Position numbers and translations under genes: made by a program. The notes beneath the pieces were generated by a model. That model did not search any database and had not been told where the DNA came from. It was given only the letters and a program-made list of their open reading frames with translations. From Escherichia coli (lineage in GTDB: Bacteria; Pseudomonadota; Gammaproteobacteria; Enterobacterales; Enterobacteriaceae), in assembly GCF_046105845.1 (NCBI RefSeq), contig NZ_CP151004.1: DNA of 64,000 nucleotides, one strand, 5' to 3'. Positions 29,924 through 58,062 of this stretch are shown here, in pieces. Position 1 is the first letter of the stretch; each line of letters begins with the position of its first letter.

Positions 29924-31132
29924 ATGACCGTAAATTCTTCACGTAATGCATTGAAACGCCGAACCTGGGCGCTGTTTATGTTCTTCTTTTTGCCGGGCCT
30001 GTTAATGGCGTCCTGGGCAACCCGTACGCCTGCTATCCGCGATATTCTTTCTGTTTCGATCGCTGAAATGGGCGGTGTTCTCTTTGGTCTGTCGATCGGT
30101 TCGATGAGCGGTATTCTCTGCTCGGCGTGGTTAGTGAAACGCTTTGGGACACGTAATGTCATCCTGGTCACGATGTCCTGCGCATTGATCGGGATGATGA
30201 TATTAAGTCTGGCACTCTGGCTGACATCGCCCCTGCTCTTTGCCGTTGGTCTCGGCGTCTTTGGGGCAAGTTTTGGTTCTGCGGAAGTGGCGATAAACGT
30301 TGAAGGTGCTGCCGTTGAGCGAGAAATGAATAAGACGGTTTTGCCGATGATGCACGGTTTTTATAGCCTGGGCACGCTGGCAGGCGCTGGTGTCGGGATG
30401 GCACTGACGGCCTTTGGCGTTCCGGCAACAGTGCACATTTTATTGGCGGCGCTGGTAGGCATCGCGCCTATTTATATCGCCATTCAGGCAATCCCTGACG
30501 GTACGGGCAAAAATGCTGCCGATGGCACCCAGCATGGTGAAAAAGGCGTACCTTTTTATCGGGATATCCAGTTGCTGCTGATTGGTGTTGTGGTGCTGGC
30601 GATGGCCTTTGCCGAAGGTTCTGCCAACGACTGGTTACCCTTATTAATGGTTGACGGTCACGGTTTTAGCCCTACTTCCGGCTCGCTGATTTATGCCGGT
30701 TTTACCCTGGGGATGACTGTTGGACGCTTTACCGGCGGTTGGTTCATCGACCGTTACAGTCGCGTTGCCGTGGTTCGGGCCAGTGCACTAATGGGAGCGT
30801 TGGGTATTGGGCTGATTATTTTTGTCGATAGCGCCTGGGTCGCTGGGGTGTCTGTTGTACTTTGGGGACTGGGTGCCTCGCTGGGCTTCCCACTGACCAT
30901 TTCTGCCGCCAGCGATACCGGCCCCGATGCACCGACCCGCGTCAGCGTGGTAGCAACGACCGGTTATCTGGCTTTCCTCGTCGGGCCGCCGCTGCTGGGC
31001 TATCTCGGCGAACATTATGGATTACGTAGTGCAATGCTGGTTGTACTGGCGCTGGTTATTCTCGCGGCTATTGTCGCGAAAGCCGTCGCCAAACCCGATA
31101 CCAAAACGCAGACGGCGATGGAGAATAGTTGA
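29924..31132 (+). CDS. ybjJ: MFS transporter YbjJ
   Basis: 402-aa 12-TM type ORF. Confidence 0.85.
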
Positions 31133-31947
31133 TGAGCATTAAATTAATTGCGGTAGACATGGATGGTACTTTCTTAAGCGATCAAAAAACCTATAACCGT
31201 GAGCGGTTTATGGCTCAGTATCAGCAAATGAAAGCACAAGGCATTCGCTTTGTGGTCGCCAGCGGGAATCAATATTATCAGTTGATCTCTTTCTTCCCTG
31301 AAATTGCTAATGAAATTGCCTTTGTGGCTGAAAACGGCGGCTGGGTAGTGAGCGAAGGCAAAGATGTTTTTAATGGCGAGCTGTCGAAGGATGCGTTTGC
31401 TACTGTCGTGGAACATTTGCTGACGCGCCCGGAAGTGGAAATTATTGCCTGCGGAAAAAATAGTGCCTATACACTCAAAAAATATGACGATGCCATGAAA
31501 ACGGTGGCGGAAATGTATTATCACCGTCTGGAATACGTCGATAACTTTGACAACTTAGAAGATATCTTCTTTAAGTTTGGCCTGAATCTTTCCGATGAAC
31601 TGATTCCACAAGTACAAAAAGCATTACATGAGGCCATCGGCGATATTATGGTGCCGGTCCACACCGGCAACGGCAGCATCGATCTGATTATCCCCGGCGT
31701 ACATAAAGCCAATGGCCTTCGCCAACTGCAGAAATTATGGGGAATAGACGACAGCGAAGTGGTGGTCTTTGGCGATGGCGGTAACGATATTGAGATGCTG
31801 CGTCAGGCTGGCTTTAGTTTTGCAATGGAAAATGCCGGCAGCGCGGTCGTCGCAGCGGCAAAATACCGGGCAGGCTCCAATAACCGTGAAGGCGTACTGG
31901 ATGTGATCGATAAAGTTCTTAAACACGAAGCGCCATTTAACCAATAA
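31132..31947 (+). CDS. ybjI: HAD-superfamily (Cof-type) sugar/FMN phosphatase YbjI
   Basis: DMDGTF HAD motif I; strong paralogy to ybiV at 57247. Confidence 0.88.
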   Translation: MSIKLIAVDMDGTFLSDQKTYNRERFMAQYQQMKAQGIRFVVASGNQYYQLISFFPEIANEIAFVAENGGWVVSEGKDVFNGELSKDAFATVVEHLLTRPEVEIIACGKNSAYTLKKYDDAMKTVAEMYYHRLEYVDNFDNLEDIFFKFGLNLSDELIPQVQKALHEAIGDIMVPVHTGNGSIDLIIPGVHKANGLRQLQKLWGIDDSEVVVFGDGGNDIEMLRQAGFSFAMENAGSAVVAAAKYRAGSNNREGVLDVIDKVLKHEAPFNQ

Positions 31948-32032
31948 AAACGGCAGCACGCCCGGCAACACAATGCCTGAATGAAGGCTGCATAATTCGC
32001 GGAAATTAACCCGCTGCATTATTTCAGGCGAA

Positions 32033-54668: not shown

Positions 54669-57101
54669 ATGACCACACTGAAACTGGATACGCTCAGCGA
54701 CCGCATTAAAGCGCACAAAAATGCGCTGGTGCATATTGTGAAACCGCCGGTCTGTACCGAGCGCGCGCAGCACTATACTGAGATGTATCAACAACATCTC
54801 GATAAGCCGATCCCGGTACGTCGCGCGCTGGCGCTGGCGCATCACCTGGCGAATCGCACCATCTGGATCAAGCACGATGAGTTGATCATTGGCAACCAGG
54901 CAAGCGAAGTTCGCGCCGCGCCGATCTTCCCGGAATATACCGTCTCCTGGATCGAAAAAGAGATTGATGATCTGGCGGATCGTCCGGGTGCTGGTTTTGC
55001 GGTGAGCGAAGAGAACAAACGTGTTCTGCATGAAGTGTGCCCTTGGTGGCGCGGTCAGACGGTACAGGATCGCTGCTACGGCATGTTTACCGATGAGCAA
55101 AAAGGTCTGCTGGCGACCGGAATCATTAAAGCGGAAGGCAATATGACCTCCGGCGATGCGCACCTGGCGGTGAATTTCCCGCTACTGCTGGAAAAAGGTC
55201 TTGATGGTCTGCGCGAGAAAGTAGCGGAACGTCGCTCGCGCATCAACCTGACGGTGCTGGAAGATTTGCACGGCGAGCAGTTCCTGAAAGCGATTGATAT
55301 CGTGCTGGTGGCAGTCAGTGAACACATTGAACGTTTCGCTGCCCTGGCGCGTGAAATGGCAGCCACTGAAACCCGCGAAAGCCGTCGCGATGAACTGCTG
55401 GCGATAGCAGAAAACTGCGATCTTATCGCCCACCAGCCGCCGCAGACTTTCTGGCAGGCGCTGCAACTGTGTTACTTCATCCAGTTGATTTTGCAGATCG
55501 AATCTAACGGTCACTCGGTATCGTTTGGTCGTATGGACCAGTATCTCTACCCGTACTATCGCCGCGACGTTGAACTGAACCAGACACTGGATCGCGAACA
55601 TGCCATCGAGATGCTGCATAGCTGCTGGTTGAAACTGCTGGAAGTGAACAAAATCCGCTCCGGCTCGCACTCGAAAGCCTCTGCGGGAAGTCCGCTGTAT
55701 CAGAACGTCACCATTGGCGGACAAAATCTGGTTGATGGTCAACCAATGGACGCGGTGAATCCACTCTCTTACGCGATCCTCGAATCCTGCGGTCGCCTGC
55801 GTTCCACTCAGCCTAACCTCAGCGTGCGTTACCATGCAGGAATGAGCAACGATTTCCTCGACGCCTGCGTACAGGTGATCCGTTGCGGCTTCGGGATGCC
55901 GGCGTTCAACAACGACGAAATCGTGATCCCGGAATTTATTAAACTCGGTATTGAACCGCAGGACGCTTACGACTATGCAGCGATTGGTTGTATCGAAACC
56001 GCCGTCGGTGGCAAATGGGGCTATCGCTGTACCGGCATGAGCTTTATCAACTTCGCCCGTGTGATGCTGGCGGCGCTGGAAGGCGGTCGTGATGCCACCA
56101 GCGGCAAAGTGTTCCTGCCACAAGAAAAAGCGTTGTCGGCAGGTAACTTCAACAACTTCGATGAAGTGATGGACGCGTGGGATACGCAAATCCGTTACTA
56201 CACGCGTAAATCAATCGAAATCGAATATGTCGTTGACACCATGCTGGAAGAGAACGTGCACGATATTCTCTGCTCGGCGCTGGTGGATGACTGTATTGAG
56301 CGAGCGAAAAGCATCAAGCAAGGCGGCGCGAAATATGACTGGGTTTCTGGCCTGCAGGTTGGCATTGCCAACCTCGGCAACAGCCTGGCGGCAGTGAAGA
56401 AACTGGTATTTGAACAGGGCGCGATTGGTCAGCAACAACTGGCTGCCGCACTGGCGGATGACTTCGATGGCCTGACTCATGAGCAACTGCGTCAGCGGCT
56501 GATTAACGGTGCGCCGAAGTACGGCAACGACGATGATACCGTCGATACGCTGCTGGCTCGCGCTTATCAGACCTATATCGACGAACTGAAACAGTACCAT
56601 AACCCACGCTACGGTCGTGGTCCGGTTGGCGGCAACTATTACGCGGGTACGTCGTCTATCTCCGCTAACGTACCGTTTGGCGCGCAGACTATGGCAACAC
56701 CGGACGGGCGCAAAGCCCACACCCCGCTGGCAGAAGGCGCAAGCCCGGCTTCCGGTACTGATCATCTTGGCCCTACTGCGGTCATTGGCTCAGTGGGTAA
56801 ACTGCCTACGGCCGCGATTCTCGGCGGCGTGCTGCTCAACCAGAAACTGAATCCAGCAACGCTGGAGAACGAATCTGACAAGCAGAAACTGATGATCCTG
56901 CTACGCACCTTCTTTGAAGTGCATAAAGGCTGGCATATTCAGTACAACATCGTTTCCCGCGAAACGCTGCTGGAAGCGAAAAAACATCCGGATCAGTACC
57001 GCGATCTGGTAGTGCGTGTCGCGGGTTATTCCGCCTTCTTCACTGCGCTCTCTCCAGACGCACAGGACGATATCATCGCCCGTACTGAACATATGCTGTA
57101 A
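54669..57101 (+). CDS. pflF: Glycyl-radical enzyme (pyruvate formate-lyase homolog) PflF/YbiW
   Basis: 810 aa; C-terminal glycyl-radical motif ([10 protein letters not shown]). Confidence 0.9.
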
Positions 57102-57246
57102 CTCTTCCGCCCGGCGGCCACCGTCGCCGGGCCAAATCATTCACATCATCAATTTCAGCCTCGCTTTCATTCGAAATATAATTTGTGCTCTGCGTCACAT
57201 TGTTATTACACTGTTACGGTTTCATTTTCGAGCCAGGAGCACACCT

Positions 57247-58062
57247 ATGAGCGTAAAAGTTATCGTCACAGACATGGACGGTACTTTTCTTAACGACGCC
57301 AAAACGTACAACCAACCACGTTTTATGGCGCAATATCAGGAACTGAAAAAGCGCGGCATTAAGTTCGTTGTCGCCAGCGGTAATCAGTATTACCAGCTTA
57401 TTTCGTTCTTTCCTGAGCTAAAGGATGAGATCTCTTTTGTCGCGGAAAACGGCGCACTGGTTTACGAACATGGCAAGCAACTGTTCCACGGCGAACTGAC
57501 CCGACATGAATCGCGGATTGTGATTGGCGAGTTGCTAAAAGATAAGCAACTCAATTTTGTCGCCTGCGGTCTGCAAAGTGCATATGTCAGCGAAAACGCC
57601 CCCGAAGCATTCGTCGCACTGATGGCAAAACACTACCATCGCCTGAAACCTGTAAAAGATTATCAGGAGATTGACGACGTACTGTTCAAGTTTTCGCTCA
57701 ACCTGCCGGATGAACAAATCCCGTTAGTGATCGACAAACTGCACGTAGCGCTCGACGGCATTATGAAACCCGTCACCAGTGGTTTTGGCTTTATCGACCT
57801 GATTATTCCTGGCCTGCATAAAGCGAATGGTATTTCGCGGTTACTGAAACGCTGGGATCTGTCACCGCAAAATGTGGTAGCGATTGGCGACAGCGGTAAC
57901 GATGCGGAGATGCTGAAAATGGCGCGTTATTCCTTTGCGATGGGCAATGCTGCGGAAAACATTAAACAAATCGCCCGTTACGCTACCGATGATAATAATC
58001 ATGAAGGCGCGCTGAACGTGATTCAGGCGGTGCTGGATAATATCGCTCCTTTCAATAGTTGA
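57247..58062 (+). CDS. ybiV: HAD-superfamily sugar phosphatase YbiV
   Basis: Start at [14 protein letters not shown]; ORF track extends 231 nt upstream into pflF, which I reject. Confidence 0.88.

Follow-up and report, generated by a model that had tools for sequence, protein, structure and literature searches.

YbiV (SupH, b0822) and YbjI (b0844) of Escherichia coli K-12 are known phosphatases, and their situation as paralogues is ordinary and has been described previously. YbiV, which is represented by the solved structures 1RLM, 1RLO, 1RLT and 2HF2, is reported to hydrolyse sugar phosphates and is regarded as a broad sugar-phosphate phosphatase (PMC4197876, PMC12801476). YbjI is reported to dephosphorylate FMN and the riboflavin precursor ARPP (PMC7017516), and the ybjJI operon is reportedly repressed by RcdA (PMC3535384). 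The substrate differences between the two proteins are those given in the literature and in RefSeq product names. Cof, YigL, YidA, YbhA and YedP of E. coli have the superfamily, the fold class and the catalytic motifs in common with YbjI and YbiV, but they lie across a long tree branch at 19–26% identity; among these, Cof and YigL are themselves a pair of paralogues, though a looser one (39% identity). SMU.1108c of S. mutans (PDB 3L7Y) falls within the YbiV/YbjI subfamily, with 174–178 bits against both proteins and a TM of 0.94. So do the homologues that a genome scan retrieved from Firmicutes (Bacillus, Listeria, Trichococcus, Enterococcus and others), which are 45–52% identical to the two proteins studied here but occupy other neighbourhoods, such as that of the Bacillus homologue beside a GH4 glycosidase. 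The YcsE-type proteins of Bacillus subtilis (NF045966) are likewise Cof-type HAD-IIB enzymes, and they dephosphorylate ARPP, the role annotated for YbjI.

The stretch of DNA analysed here (the window) comprises 64,000 nucleotides of E. coli contig NZ_CP151004.1 and contains both genes (Table 1). It matches E. coli chromosomes at 98.6–99.1%, and the corresponding features are annotated there as ybjI and ybiV. A preliminary description of the window had placed the two genes, quoted their N-terminal peptides and named them as paralogues. We found both 271-residue ORFs at these positions, the quoted peptides match the translations exactly, and the names agree with the 99.3% identity of each product to its K-12 counterpart. 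For ybiV, the true start is the ATG at 57247, the listed ORF opening further upstream at a GTG (57016); the start codons of the two genes are 26,115 bp apart. The gene orders rcdA / ybjJ-ybjI-ybjH / mdfA and ybiY-ybiW-ybiV-ybiU-ybiT are those of K-12, as expected of orthologues, and each copy is the same protein among the same neighbours. The window copy of YbiV has two amino-acid differences from K-12, and dS against K-12 is higher for ybiV (0.127) than for ybjI (0.042). With dN/dS against K-12 of ~0.07 for ybjI and ~0.02 for ybiV, and with the genes present in 5424 and 5425, respectively, of 5426 complete E. coli genomes, both are retained and, judging from these comparisons, under strong purifying selection.

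Table 1. Positions of the genes and candidate regulatory elements of the two loci in the window.
Feature	Position	Strand	Remarks
RcdA-box palindrome TTGTGTACATTTGTACACAA	29861–29880		44 nt 5' of ybjJ start; exact match to the footprint sequence published in PMC3535384
ybjJ, MFS transporter gene	29924–31132	+	PF07690, E 1e-33
ybjI CDS	31132–31947	+	271 aa, Cof-type HAD-IIB phosphatase; RefSeq product: 5-amino-6-(5-phospho-D-ribitylamino)uracil phosphatase, EC 3.1.3.104
13-mer CTTTCATTCGAAA, second copy	53716–53728	+	fsaA-ybiY divergent spacer
ybiY, glycyl-radical enzyme activase gene	53764–54663	+	Coordinates transferred from the annotated locus; segment 98.2% identical to K-12 ybiY
ybiW, glycyl-radical enzyme, 810 aa	54669–57101	+	ORF and annotation
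G+C-rich hairpin GCCCGGCG ... CGCCGGGC after ybiW stop	57109–57132	+	Read from the sequence; no T tract
13-mer CTTTCATTCGAAA, operator-like	57164–57176	+	145-nt ybiW-ybiV spacer, ~70 nt 5' of ybiV ATG
ybiV (supH) CDS	57247–58062	+	271 aa, Cof-type HAD-IIB sugar phosphatase, EC 3.1.3.23
Terminator-like hairpin after ybiV stop	58073–58094	+	9 pairs, 6 G-C, T-rich tail; consensus scan only
13-mer, third copy	58188–58200	-	ybiV-ybiU spacer

Both proteins were retrieved with the profiles TIGR00099 (193.2 bits for YbjI and 221.3 for YbiV; cut-off 137), of which positions 1–256 of 256 are covered, and PF08282 (187 and 184 bits; cut-off 20.9; E ~1e-54, YbjI 6e-55). The HAD motifs that mark the superfamily are present in each, D9-M-D11-G-T13, S44, K192 and G214-D215-x-x-N218-D219, and residues D9, D11, G12, S44, G45, N46, K192, G214, D215, N218 and D219 are invariant across 43 subfamily sequences. 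YbiV matches its solved structures with an E-value of 3.6e-179. The AF2 model of YbjI (pLDDT 94) superimposes on YbiV 1RLM with a TM of 0.97 and an rmsd of 1.0 Å, compared with TM values of 0.75–0.86 for other HAD-IIB structures; no solved structure closer to YbjI than YbiV was found among the structure matches. The model contains an alpha/beta module at residues 82–188, inserted between S44 and K192 as in C2B caps. The two enzymes share a two-domain fold, with a Rossmann-like core, a C2B cap at about residues 82–188 and all four catalytic motifs kept, and are predicted to follow the standard HAD mechanism, which is Mg2+-dependent and proceeds through an aspartyl-phosphate intermediate on Asp9. 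In the profile search, neither protein reached the equivalog cut-offs of YidA, YigL, Cof or YbhA. Scores against NF007806 (YidA-type sugar-phosphatase) were 87.2 bits for YbjI and 80.4 for YbiV, below the cut-off of 273, and identity to K-12 YidA was 24–26%. NF045966 (YcsE-related riboflavin metabolism phosphatase; cut-off 220 bits) yielded 98.0 bits for YbjI and 109.9 for YbiV. As both proteins are far below this cut-off, with YbiV outscoring YbjI, the ARPP activity of YbjI is not inherited from the YcsE-type family.

The two proteins, and their N-termini in particular, had been described as near-identical. This is an overstatement: BLASTP aligned them with 142 of 270 residues identical (53%; 68% positives; E 5e-103), and the first 57 residues share 44 identities (77%), compared with 46% over the other 214. 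Similarity does continue through the whole protein, as had been claimed, since the full-length alignment contains no gaps and stays well above background outside the HAD motifs. At 52–53% overall, versus 19–26% to Cof, YbhA, YidA, YigL and YedP, each is by this measure the closest E. coli paralogue of the other. Identity drops to 27–33% in 30-residue sliding windows across residues 71–150 and to ~30% in the cap domain. DNA identity between the genes is 57% overall; it rises to 71% in the 5'-most 171 nt and falls to 38% when third codon positions are compared. Between the two clades, the N-terminal and C-terminal cores are 63% and 49% identical, respectively, versus 39% for the cap, and dN between ybjI and ybiV is 0.18 in codons 1–57 versus 0.51 in the remainder. 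Residues 1–57 hold motif I (D9-x-D11-G-T), motif II (S44-G-N) and core beta-alpha-beta units, and the 77% identity of this segment is attributable to purifying selection on the catalytic core. The cap, which would close over the leaving group and set substrate preference, has diverged to ~30–39%; the YbiV cap is 80.5% identical within its own clade and 39% identical to that of YbjI.

YbjJ, whose pairing with YbjI had been noted in the preliminary description, is an MFS transporter encoded directly upstream of it. The TGA stop of ybjJ overlaps the ATG of ybjI by one base (TGATG), an arrangement that suggests an operon with translational coupling. We compared loci from other species in a sample of 80 listed loci picked by two peptide patterns, 32 of them YbjI-type and 27 YbiV-type. 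Each of the 32 YbjI-type loci encodes a YbjJ homologue immediately upstream. The RcdA box was retrieved twice in the window, these being one site matched on both strands, versus 0.01 matches expected.

YbiW, the glycyl-radical enzyme of the ybiY-ybiW-ybiV-ybiU cluster, is reported to cleave 1,5-anhydroglucitol-6-phosphate to 1-deoxyfructose-6-phosphate (PMC12441222, citing Ma et al. 2024 JACS). Among the 80 loci listed, YbiW was found upstream of YbiV in 25 of the 27 YbiV-type loci, at 88–99% identity, and ybiU downstream of ybiV in 21. The earlier placement of ybiV downstream of ybiY-ybiW ('pflEF'), in a context different from that of ybjI, is right as to position, but a 145-nt spacer with its own conserved operator-like 13-mer precedes the gene. 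This 13-mer occurs exactly three times in the window, versus 0.17 copies expected, and always in the ybi cluster. Allowing at most one mismatch, its position in the ybiW-ybiV spacer is kept in 17 of the 27 YbiV-type loci from other genera; it also precedes ybiY in every one of the 25 YbiV-type loci with ybiW and occurs in the ybiV-ybiU spacer in 22 of 27. Altogether, 65 matches were detected in the 27 YbiV-type loci and none in the 32 YbjI-type loci. YciT ChIP-exo peaks are reported at ybiV, ybiY and fsaA (PMC8464067), and the 13-mer is probably a YciT site. The hairpin after the ybiW stop has no T tract and was not called by the terminator scan, so it offers no clear sign of termination between ybiW and ybiV. 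Independent transcription of ybiV remains putative, since a consensus scan found no sigma-70 consensus promoter in the ybiW-ybiV spacer. We infer that the two phosphatase genes may be regulated separately, ybjI through the RcdA box and ybiV through the 13-mer of its cluster.

The pair had been presented as an intra-window duplication. The genes are real paralogues, but not in the sense of recent, near-identical or gene-converted copies. A recent segmental duplication, or ongoing conversion keeping the 5' ends nearly identical, would account for the higher identity of the first 57 residues and 171 nt relative to the rest of the gene, and for two genes lying just 26 kb apart on the same strand. 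However, synonymous sites are saturated throughout (pS 0.795 overall and 0.807 in codons 1–57), and identical codons at identical amino acids are about as frequent as codon bias predicts, both over the whole gene (71 observed versus 65.4 ± 5.6 expected) and in codons 1–57 (24 of 44 versus 21.4 expected; N-terminus versus rest, Fisher P = 0.59). No identical DNA run exceeds 11 nt (permutation P = 0.89), and a flank comparison found no DNA similarity beyond the borders of the coding sequences. Across 17 species, paralogues are no closer within a genome (49.0% identity) than between genomes (48.4%), which also applies to the N-terminus (69.8% in the same genome versus 69.2% in different genera), and the two lineages exist separately throughout Enterobacteriaceae. 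The pairwise protein and nucleotide alignments, codon use, identical runs and the 17-species comparison thus provide no indication that the copies have undergone gene conversion or evolved in concert. Recent duplication or conversion is refuted for the window and, on this sequence evidence, is not the cause of the N-terminal likeness; the split is ancient and no younger than the family Enterobacteriaceae.

In a neighbour-joining tree (270 columns, 100 bootstraps), the deep branches of which are poorly resolved, the YbiV/YbjI subfamily was monophyletic in 100 of 100 bootstraps, and YbiV and YbjI were exclusive sisters in none. Both are intermixed with homologues of Firmicutes, Yersinia, Rouxiella, Pantoea and Endozoicomonas, the Firmicutes being monophyletic in only 13 of 100 bootstraps, and Firmicute homologues are as similar to YbjI (~50%) as YbiV is (49%). 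Such a pattern could arise if one lineage, for instance ybiV with the ybiYW-ybiU cluster, had been acquired horizontally by the ancestor of Enterobacteriaceae and its proximity to the other were coincidental. Two further observations point in this direction: members of the YbiV clade are accompanied by a cluster of metabolic genes, and alleles of the adjacent ybiU have clearly been exchanged between species. Nevertheless, the closest paralogue pair lies within 26 kb of a ~4.6-Mb genome, for which chance is estimated at ~2 x 26/4640 = 1.1%, and a spacing of 20–64 kb is kept in 12 other species, with the same orientation. The deep nodes are weak, and the intermixing may instead stem from rate differences or from genes transferred out of Enterobacterales. 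We therefore consider a xenologous origin unlikely, although it has a real share of the probability. As the tree is a neighbour-joining one on 270 columns and the 80-locus sample was picked by patterns, the order in which YbiV and YbjI branched relative to the Firmicute homologues and to a third enterobacterial lineage is uncertain. The conserved spacing and shared orientation tip the balance slightly towards a local duplication long ago in an ancestral genome, and this is the weakest step of our interpretation. Alternatively, whatever their origin, the two proteins might be redundant, promiscuous housekeeping phosphatases whose neighbourhoods are incidental to their role. The in vitro specificities of E. 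coli Cof-like phosphatases are broad, with substantial substrate overlap among the seven (PMC3040653), and single deletion of ybjI does not cause riboflavin auxotrophy (PMC7017516). Redundancy is hard to reconcile with the strong purifying selection on both genes and their presence in essentially all 5426 E. coli genomes, with the neighbour that each keeps over ~30 species, with the conserved cluster-specific operator-like site of ybiV and the one-base overlap of ybjI with ybjJ, or with a YbiV cap that is conserved within its clade yet so different from that of YbjI. It is a distinctly improbable explanation.

YbjI and YbiV have thus very probably diverged anciently within one small Cof-type HAD-IIB subfamily, and they now belong to different gene clusters. 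After the split, the copies may have specialised in both enzyme activity and regulation. In such a scenario, ybjI, whose translation would be coupled to that of the MFS gene ybjJ within the operon that follows the RcdA box, would serve as the reported FMN/ARPP phosphatase, and ybiV would act as a broad sugar-phosphate phosphatase inside the fsaA / ybiY-ybiW-ybiV-ybiU cluster, with its own copy of the cluster-specific 13-mer.

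The products of ybjI and ybiV are each 99.3% identical at the protein level to their K-12 counterparts, b0844 (YbjI) and b0822 (YbiV). Together with the annotation of matching E. coli genomes (ybjJ, ybjI, ybjH and mdfA on one side; ybiY, ybiW, ybiV and a DUF1479 gene, ybiU, on the other), this bears out the gene names used in the preliminary description, whose quoted N-terminal peptides match the N-termini of both ORFs exactly. Among 5,426 complete E. coli genomes searched with megablast, the ybjI neighbourhood was present in 5424 (at up to 99.1% identity) and the ybiV neighbourhood in 5425 (at up to 98.6%). 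The two genes had been presented as near-identical, which overstates their resemblance. In BLASTP, the proteins share 142/270 residues (53%; 68% positives, E 5e-103) in a gapless alignment, with 77% identity in residues 1-57 (44/57) and 46% in the remainder; at the DNA level, overall identity is 57%, rising to 71% in nucleotides 1-171 and dropping to 38% if third codon positions are taken alone, and no identical run exceeds 11 nt. In 30-residue sliding windows, protein identity falls to 27-33% at residues 71-150 and returns to 50-63% near residues 160-210. Similarity was also said to continue through the protein, and the gapless alignment agrees, identity not dropping to background beyond the HAD motifs. 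Among the K-12 proteins, YbjI and YbiV are 52-53% identical to each other, and either is 19-26% identical to Cof, YbhA, YidA, YigL and YedP; the second-closest pair among the seven Cof-like paralogs is Cof/YigL, at 39%. By sequence identity, YbjI and YbiV are a specific pair among the E. coli Cof-like paralogs. A tblastn search of the window with the seven Cof-type proteins of E. coli as queries retrieved no third HAD copy.

Coordinates of the two phosphatase genes, of associated features in the window and of homologue loci from the genome scan
Feature	Coordinates	Strand	Remarks
RcdA-box palindrome TTGTGTACATTTGTACACAA	29861-29880		rcdA-ybjJ divergent spacer, 44 nt 5' of ybjJ; perfect copy of the published box
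ybjI ORF	31132-31947	+	271 codons
moeA-fsaA-ybiYWV stretch	51000-58000
CTTTCATTCGAAA copy	53716-53728	+	upstream of ybiY
Hairpin	57109-57132		directly 3' of the ybiW stop
CTTTCATTCGAAA copy	57164-57176	+	ybiW-ybiV spacer, upstream of ybiV
ybiV ORF	57247-58062	+	271 codons; listed from GTG 57016, real start ATG 57247
CTTTCATTCGAAA copy	58188-58200	-	inverted, upstream of ybiU
ybiU and ybiV-ybiU spacer	58063-59473		DUF1479 / Pfam Gig2-like
Third-lineage locus, Yersinia nurmii	L071:2606-5825
Third-lineage locus, Rouxiella aceris	L075:2612-5819
Subfamily locus, Rouxiella aceris	L040:2372-5810
Subfamily locus, Bacillus glycinifermentans	L042:3420-5816

Both proteins score above the curated cut-off (137 bits) of TIGR00099, the Cof-type HAD-IIB profile (YbjI 193 bits, YbiV 221 bits), and Pfam Hydrolase_3 matches them from end to end. 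Each contains the HAD motifs D9-x-D11-G-T, S44-G-N, K192 and G214-D215-x-x-N218-D219, whose residues are invariant across a 43-sequence alignment of the YbjI/YbiV subfamily. Crystal structures are available for YbiV (1RLM, 1RLO, 1RLT and 2HF2), which is also the nearest solved structure for YbjI. An AlphaFold model of YbjI (pLDDT 94.2, pTM 0.91) superposes on YbiV 1RLM with a TM score of 0.97 and an rmsd of 1.0 Å over 269 columns, and its cap is predicted to be an alpha/beta module of approximately residues 82-188. Both proteins scored below the cut-off of the riboflavin-phosphatase equivalog NF045966 (Bacillus YcsE-type) and below those of the YidA, YigL, Cof and YbhA equivalogs, and these assignments were rejected.

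The surplus of identity at the N-terminus might be read as a trace of gene conversion or of a recent duplication, and every line of evidence bearing on this was negative. Over the whole gene, pS between ybjI and ybiV is 0.795 (Nei-Gojobori), which exceeds the saturation limit of 0.75, with values of 0.807 in codons 1-57 and 0.792 in the other codons; dN (0.18 and 0.51, respectively) is the sole rate that differs between these regions. Identical codons were observed at 71 of the 142 shared amino acids, where local codon usage predicts 65.4 +/- 5.6, without a difference between the N-terminus (24/44) and the rest (47/98; Fisher P = 0.59), and the longest identical run is below the permutation mean (P = 0.89). 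DNA similarity consists of two colinear stretches, both within the coding sequence, and comparison of the flanks of the two loci retrieved nothing in common outside it. Across 17 genomes with both copies, YbjI/YbiV identity within genomes (49.0%; N-terminus, 69.8%) equals that between genomes (48.4%; N-terminus, 69.2%), and the pair thus shows no concerted evolution. Since pS is alike in both regions, dN alone differs and identical codons are about as frequent as expected, the surplus lies at the protein level; it reflects purifying selection on the catalytic core and no recent event.

For comparison across species, the alignment of the two proteins was run against 100,044 species-representative genomes, from which the best 80 loci were chosen by pattern. 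Among these 80, 32 are YbjI-type (64-96% identical to YbjI), and in 32/32 of them the end of a YbjJ-homologue gene meets the phosphatase start; 27 are YbiV-type (75-97% identical), with YbiW upstream in 25/27 (88-99% identity) and YbiU downstream in 21/27; and the 21 others are 41-60% identical to YbjI and YbiV alike. Among the matches listed, both copies lie on one contig, 20-64 kb apart, in at least 12 species (Citrobacter, Enterobacter, Lelliottia, Raoultella, Superficieibacter, Kluyvera, Pseudocitrobacter and another Enterobacteriaceae isolate), which places the two-copy arrangement before the Enterobacteriaceae radiation. Neighbour-joining bootstraps gave 100/100 for separation of the entire subfamily from the remaining E. 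coli Cof paralogs, 100/100 for the YbiV clade, 87/100 for the YbjI clade and 0/100 for the two clades as exclusive sisters. Interleaved between them are homologues from Firmicutes (Bacillus, Listeria, Trichococcus, Enterococcus, Breznakia and Neobacillus) as well as from Yersinia, Rouxiella, Pantoea, Mixta and Endozoicomonas, and mean identity to YbjI is 50% for the Firmicute proteins and 49% for YbiV. Because the deep nodes of this tree are weak and the sample is the pattern-selected best 80 loci, the sole conclusion drawn from it is that the split, as judged from these sequences, is very old. One copy could have been acquired, or the pair could stem from an ancient local duplication. We mildly prefer the latter, since the proximity of the two genes is conserved and we put at about 1% the chance that, in a 4.6-Mb genome, the two most similar paralogs would be co-oriented and no more than 26 kb apart.

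In Y. nurmii and R. aceris (L071 and L075), subfamily members of a third lineage were observed, with 41-49% identity to YbjI as well as to YbiV. There, the phosphatase gene is immediately 3' of an MFS transporter gene whose product is just 25-27% identical to YbjJ, and a ROK-family regulator gene is located 5' of the transporter gene; transporter-plus-phosphatase pairing is therefore also found beyond the YbjI clade. In a second R. aceris locus and in B. glycinifermentans (L040 and L042), subfamily genes are encoded beside GAT-type PTS EIIA/EIIB/EIIC or family-4 glycoside hydrolase genes, neighbours that fit a general tie of the YbiV/YbjI subfamily to phosphosugar metabolism.

Divergence between the clades (33 YbjI-clade and 28 YbiV-clade sequences) is unevenly spread. 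The N-terminal core (residues 1-80) is 63% identical between clades and 83% within either, and the C-terminal core (residues 191-271) is 49% identical between clades, 78.5% within YbiV and 71% within YbjI. The cap (residues 81-190) is 39% identical between clades and, with the same genera sampled, far better kept in YbiV orthologues (80.5%) than in YbjI orthologues (61%). YbjI is also the faster evolving overall, with a mean within-clade identity of 70.6% versus 80.6% for YbiV. Fixed differences between the clades occupy 21 positions, among them G70A and W71L past the ENG motif and K109L, Y118A, K123V, Y129H and S182F inside the cap. This core/cap pattern is what would be predicted were substrate preference set by the cap and the lineages specialised. 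It also seems to agree with the activities annotated or published for the two enzymes: YbjI is reported to be an FMN and ARPP phosphatase (PMC7017516), a role also reflected in its RefSeq product name, and YbiV a broad sugar phosphatase (PMC4197876, PMC12801476). Specificities published for the Cof-like family overlap substantially (PMC3040653).

The start of ybjI overlaps the stop of ybjJ, which encodes an MFS transporter (Pfam MFS_1), by one base (TGATG), and the 'ybjJI operon' is reportedly repressed by RcdA (PMC3535384), whose box precedes ybjJ (table). On the other side, ybiW and ybiV are separated by 145 nt, and a consensus scan of this spacer found neither a sigma-70 promoter nor an intrinsic terminator. 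The hairpin at its 5' end, G+C-rich, of 8 bp and without a T tract, may serve in RNA stabilisation or processing and not in termination. The window (64 kb) contains exactly three copies of the 13-mer CTTTCATTCGAAA, a TTTC-N4-GAAA inverted repeat, versus 0.17 expected. Allowing up to one mismatch, and among the best 80 loci, the 13-mer was retrieved from other genera 5' of ybiY in 25/25 YbiV-type loci with ybiW, 5' of ybiV in 17/27 YbiV-type loci and in the ybiV-ybiU interval in 22/27, and in none of the 32 YbjI-type loci. The DeoR-type regulator YciT is reported to have ChIP-exo peaks at ybiV, ybiY and fsaA, genes also reported as differentially expressed in a yciT mutant, and ybiU-ybiV-ybiW-ybiY-fsaA has been proposed as an uncharacterised pathway (PMC8464067). 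We infer that the 13-mer is probably the YciT operator. Two Superficieibacter YbiV-type loci (L060 and L074) contain no copy of the 13-mer; in both, the YbiV orthologue (78-79% identity) has neither ybiW nor ybiU as a neighbour, indicating that the phosphatase is able to persist without the glycyl-radical cluster.

The window ybiU is just 75.6% identical in DNA to K-12 ybiU, the flanks being at 97-99% (ybiV and ybiT, 97-98%). Its product shares 84% identity with K-12 YbiU and 93% with the YbiU of the E. coli species representative. Between K-12 and Citrobacter, YbiU identity reaches 93%, so the K-12 protein resembles that of Citrobacter more than that of the window. ybiU thus exists in E. coli in at least three deeply diverged allelic forms, and there are indications of interspecies exchange. 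Owing to such alleles, just 4328 of 5425 genomes covered at least 80% of the ybiW-ybiU query. The moeA-fsaA-ybiYWV stretch is 95-97.6% identical to K-12 per kb (ybiV dS 0.127), and the ybjJ-ybjI side is less diverged (98-99%; ybjI dS 0.042), which suggests that the ybi cluster of this strain has had a recombination history of its own.

The glycyl-radical enzyme YbiW converts 1,5-anhydroglucitol-6-phosphate into 1-deoxyfructose-6-phosphate, according to the account of Ma et al. 2024 given in PMC12441222. This reported activity and the cluster context make a pathway role for YbiV plausible, and we tentatively raise the possibility, itself rather doubtful, that YbiV is the dedicated phosphatase of the fsaA / ybiY-ybiW-ybiV-ybiU 1,5-anhydroglucitol radical-glycolysis cluster, not a generic housekeeping enzyme. 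As a dedicated phosphatase, YbiV may be turned on via its own copy of the 13-mer operator and may serve as a safety valve that dephosphorylates 1,5-anhydroglucitol-6-phosphate or 1-deoxyfructose-6-phosphate in the event that the YbiW step, which is sensitive to oxygen, comes to a halt. That specific substrate would then account for the strong conservation of its cap (80% in the YbiV clade), and YbiV would, if this is true, be a bacterial analogue of human G6PC3. In parallel, ybjJ-ybjI may be a dephosphorylate-and-export module.

YbjI and YbiV are old, well-known full-length homologous HAD-IIB paralogs, specialised in sequence, neighbourhood and regulation. Both are already characterised E. coli enzymes, listed in the literature among seven Cof-like paralogs, and the pair is a clean textbook case of HAD phosphatase diversification, in which the catalytic core has stayed fixed, the caps have drifted apart and either copy has been drawn into an operon and regulon of its own. 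Conserved gene order and the operator-like site tie ybiV to the 1,5-anhydroglucitol glycyl-radical cluster, suggesting a specific physiological substrate for YbiV.
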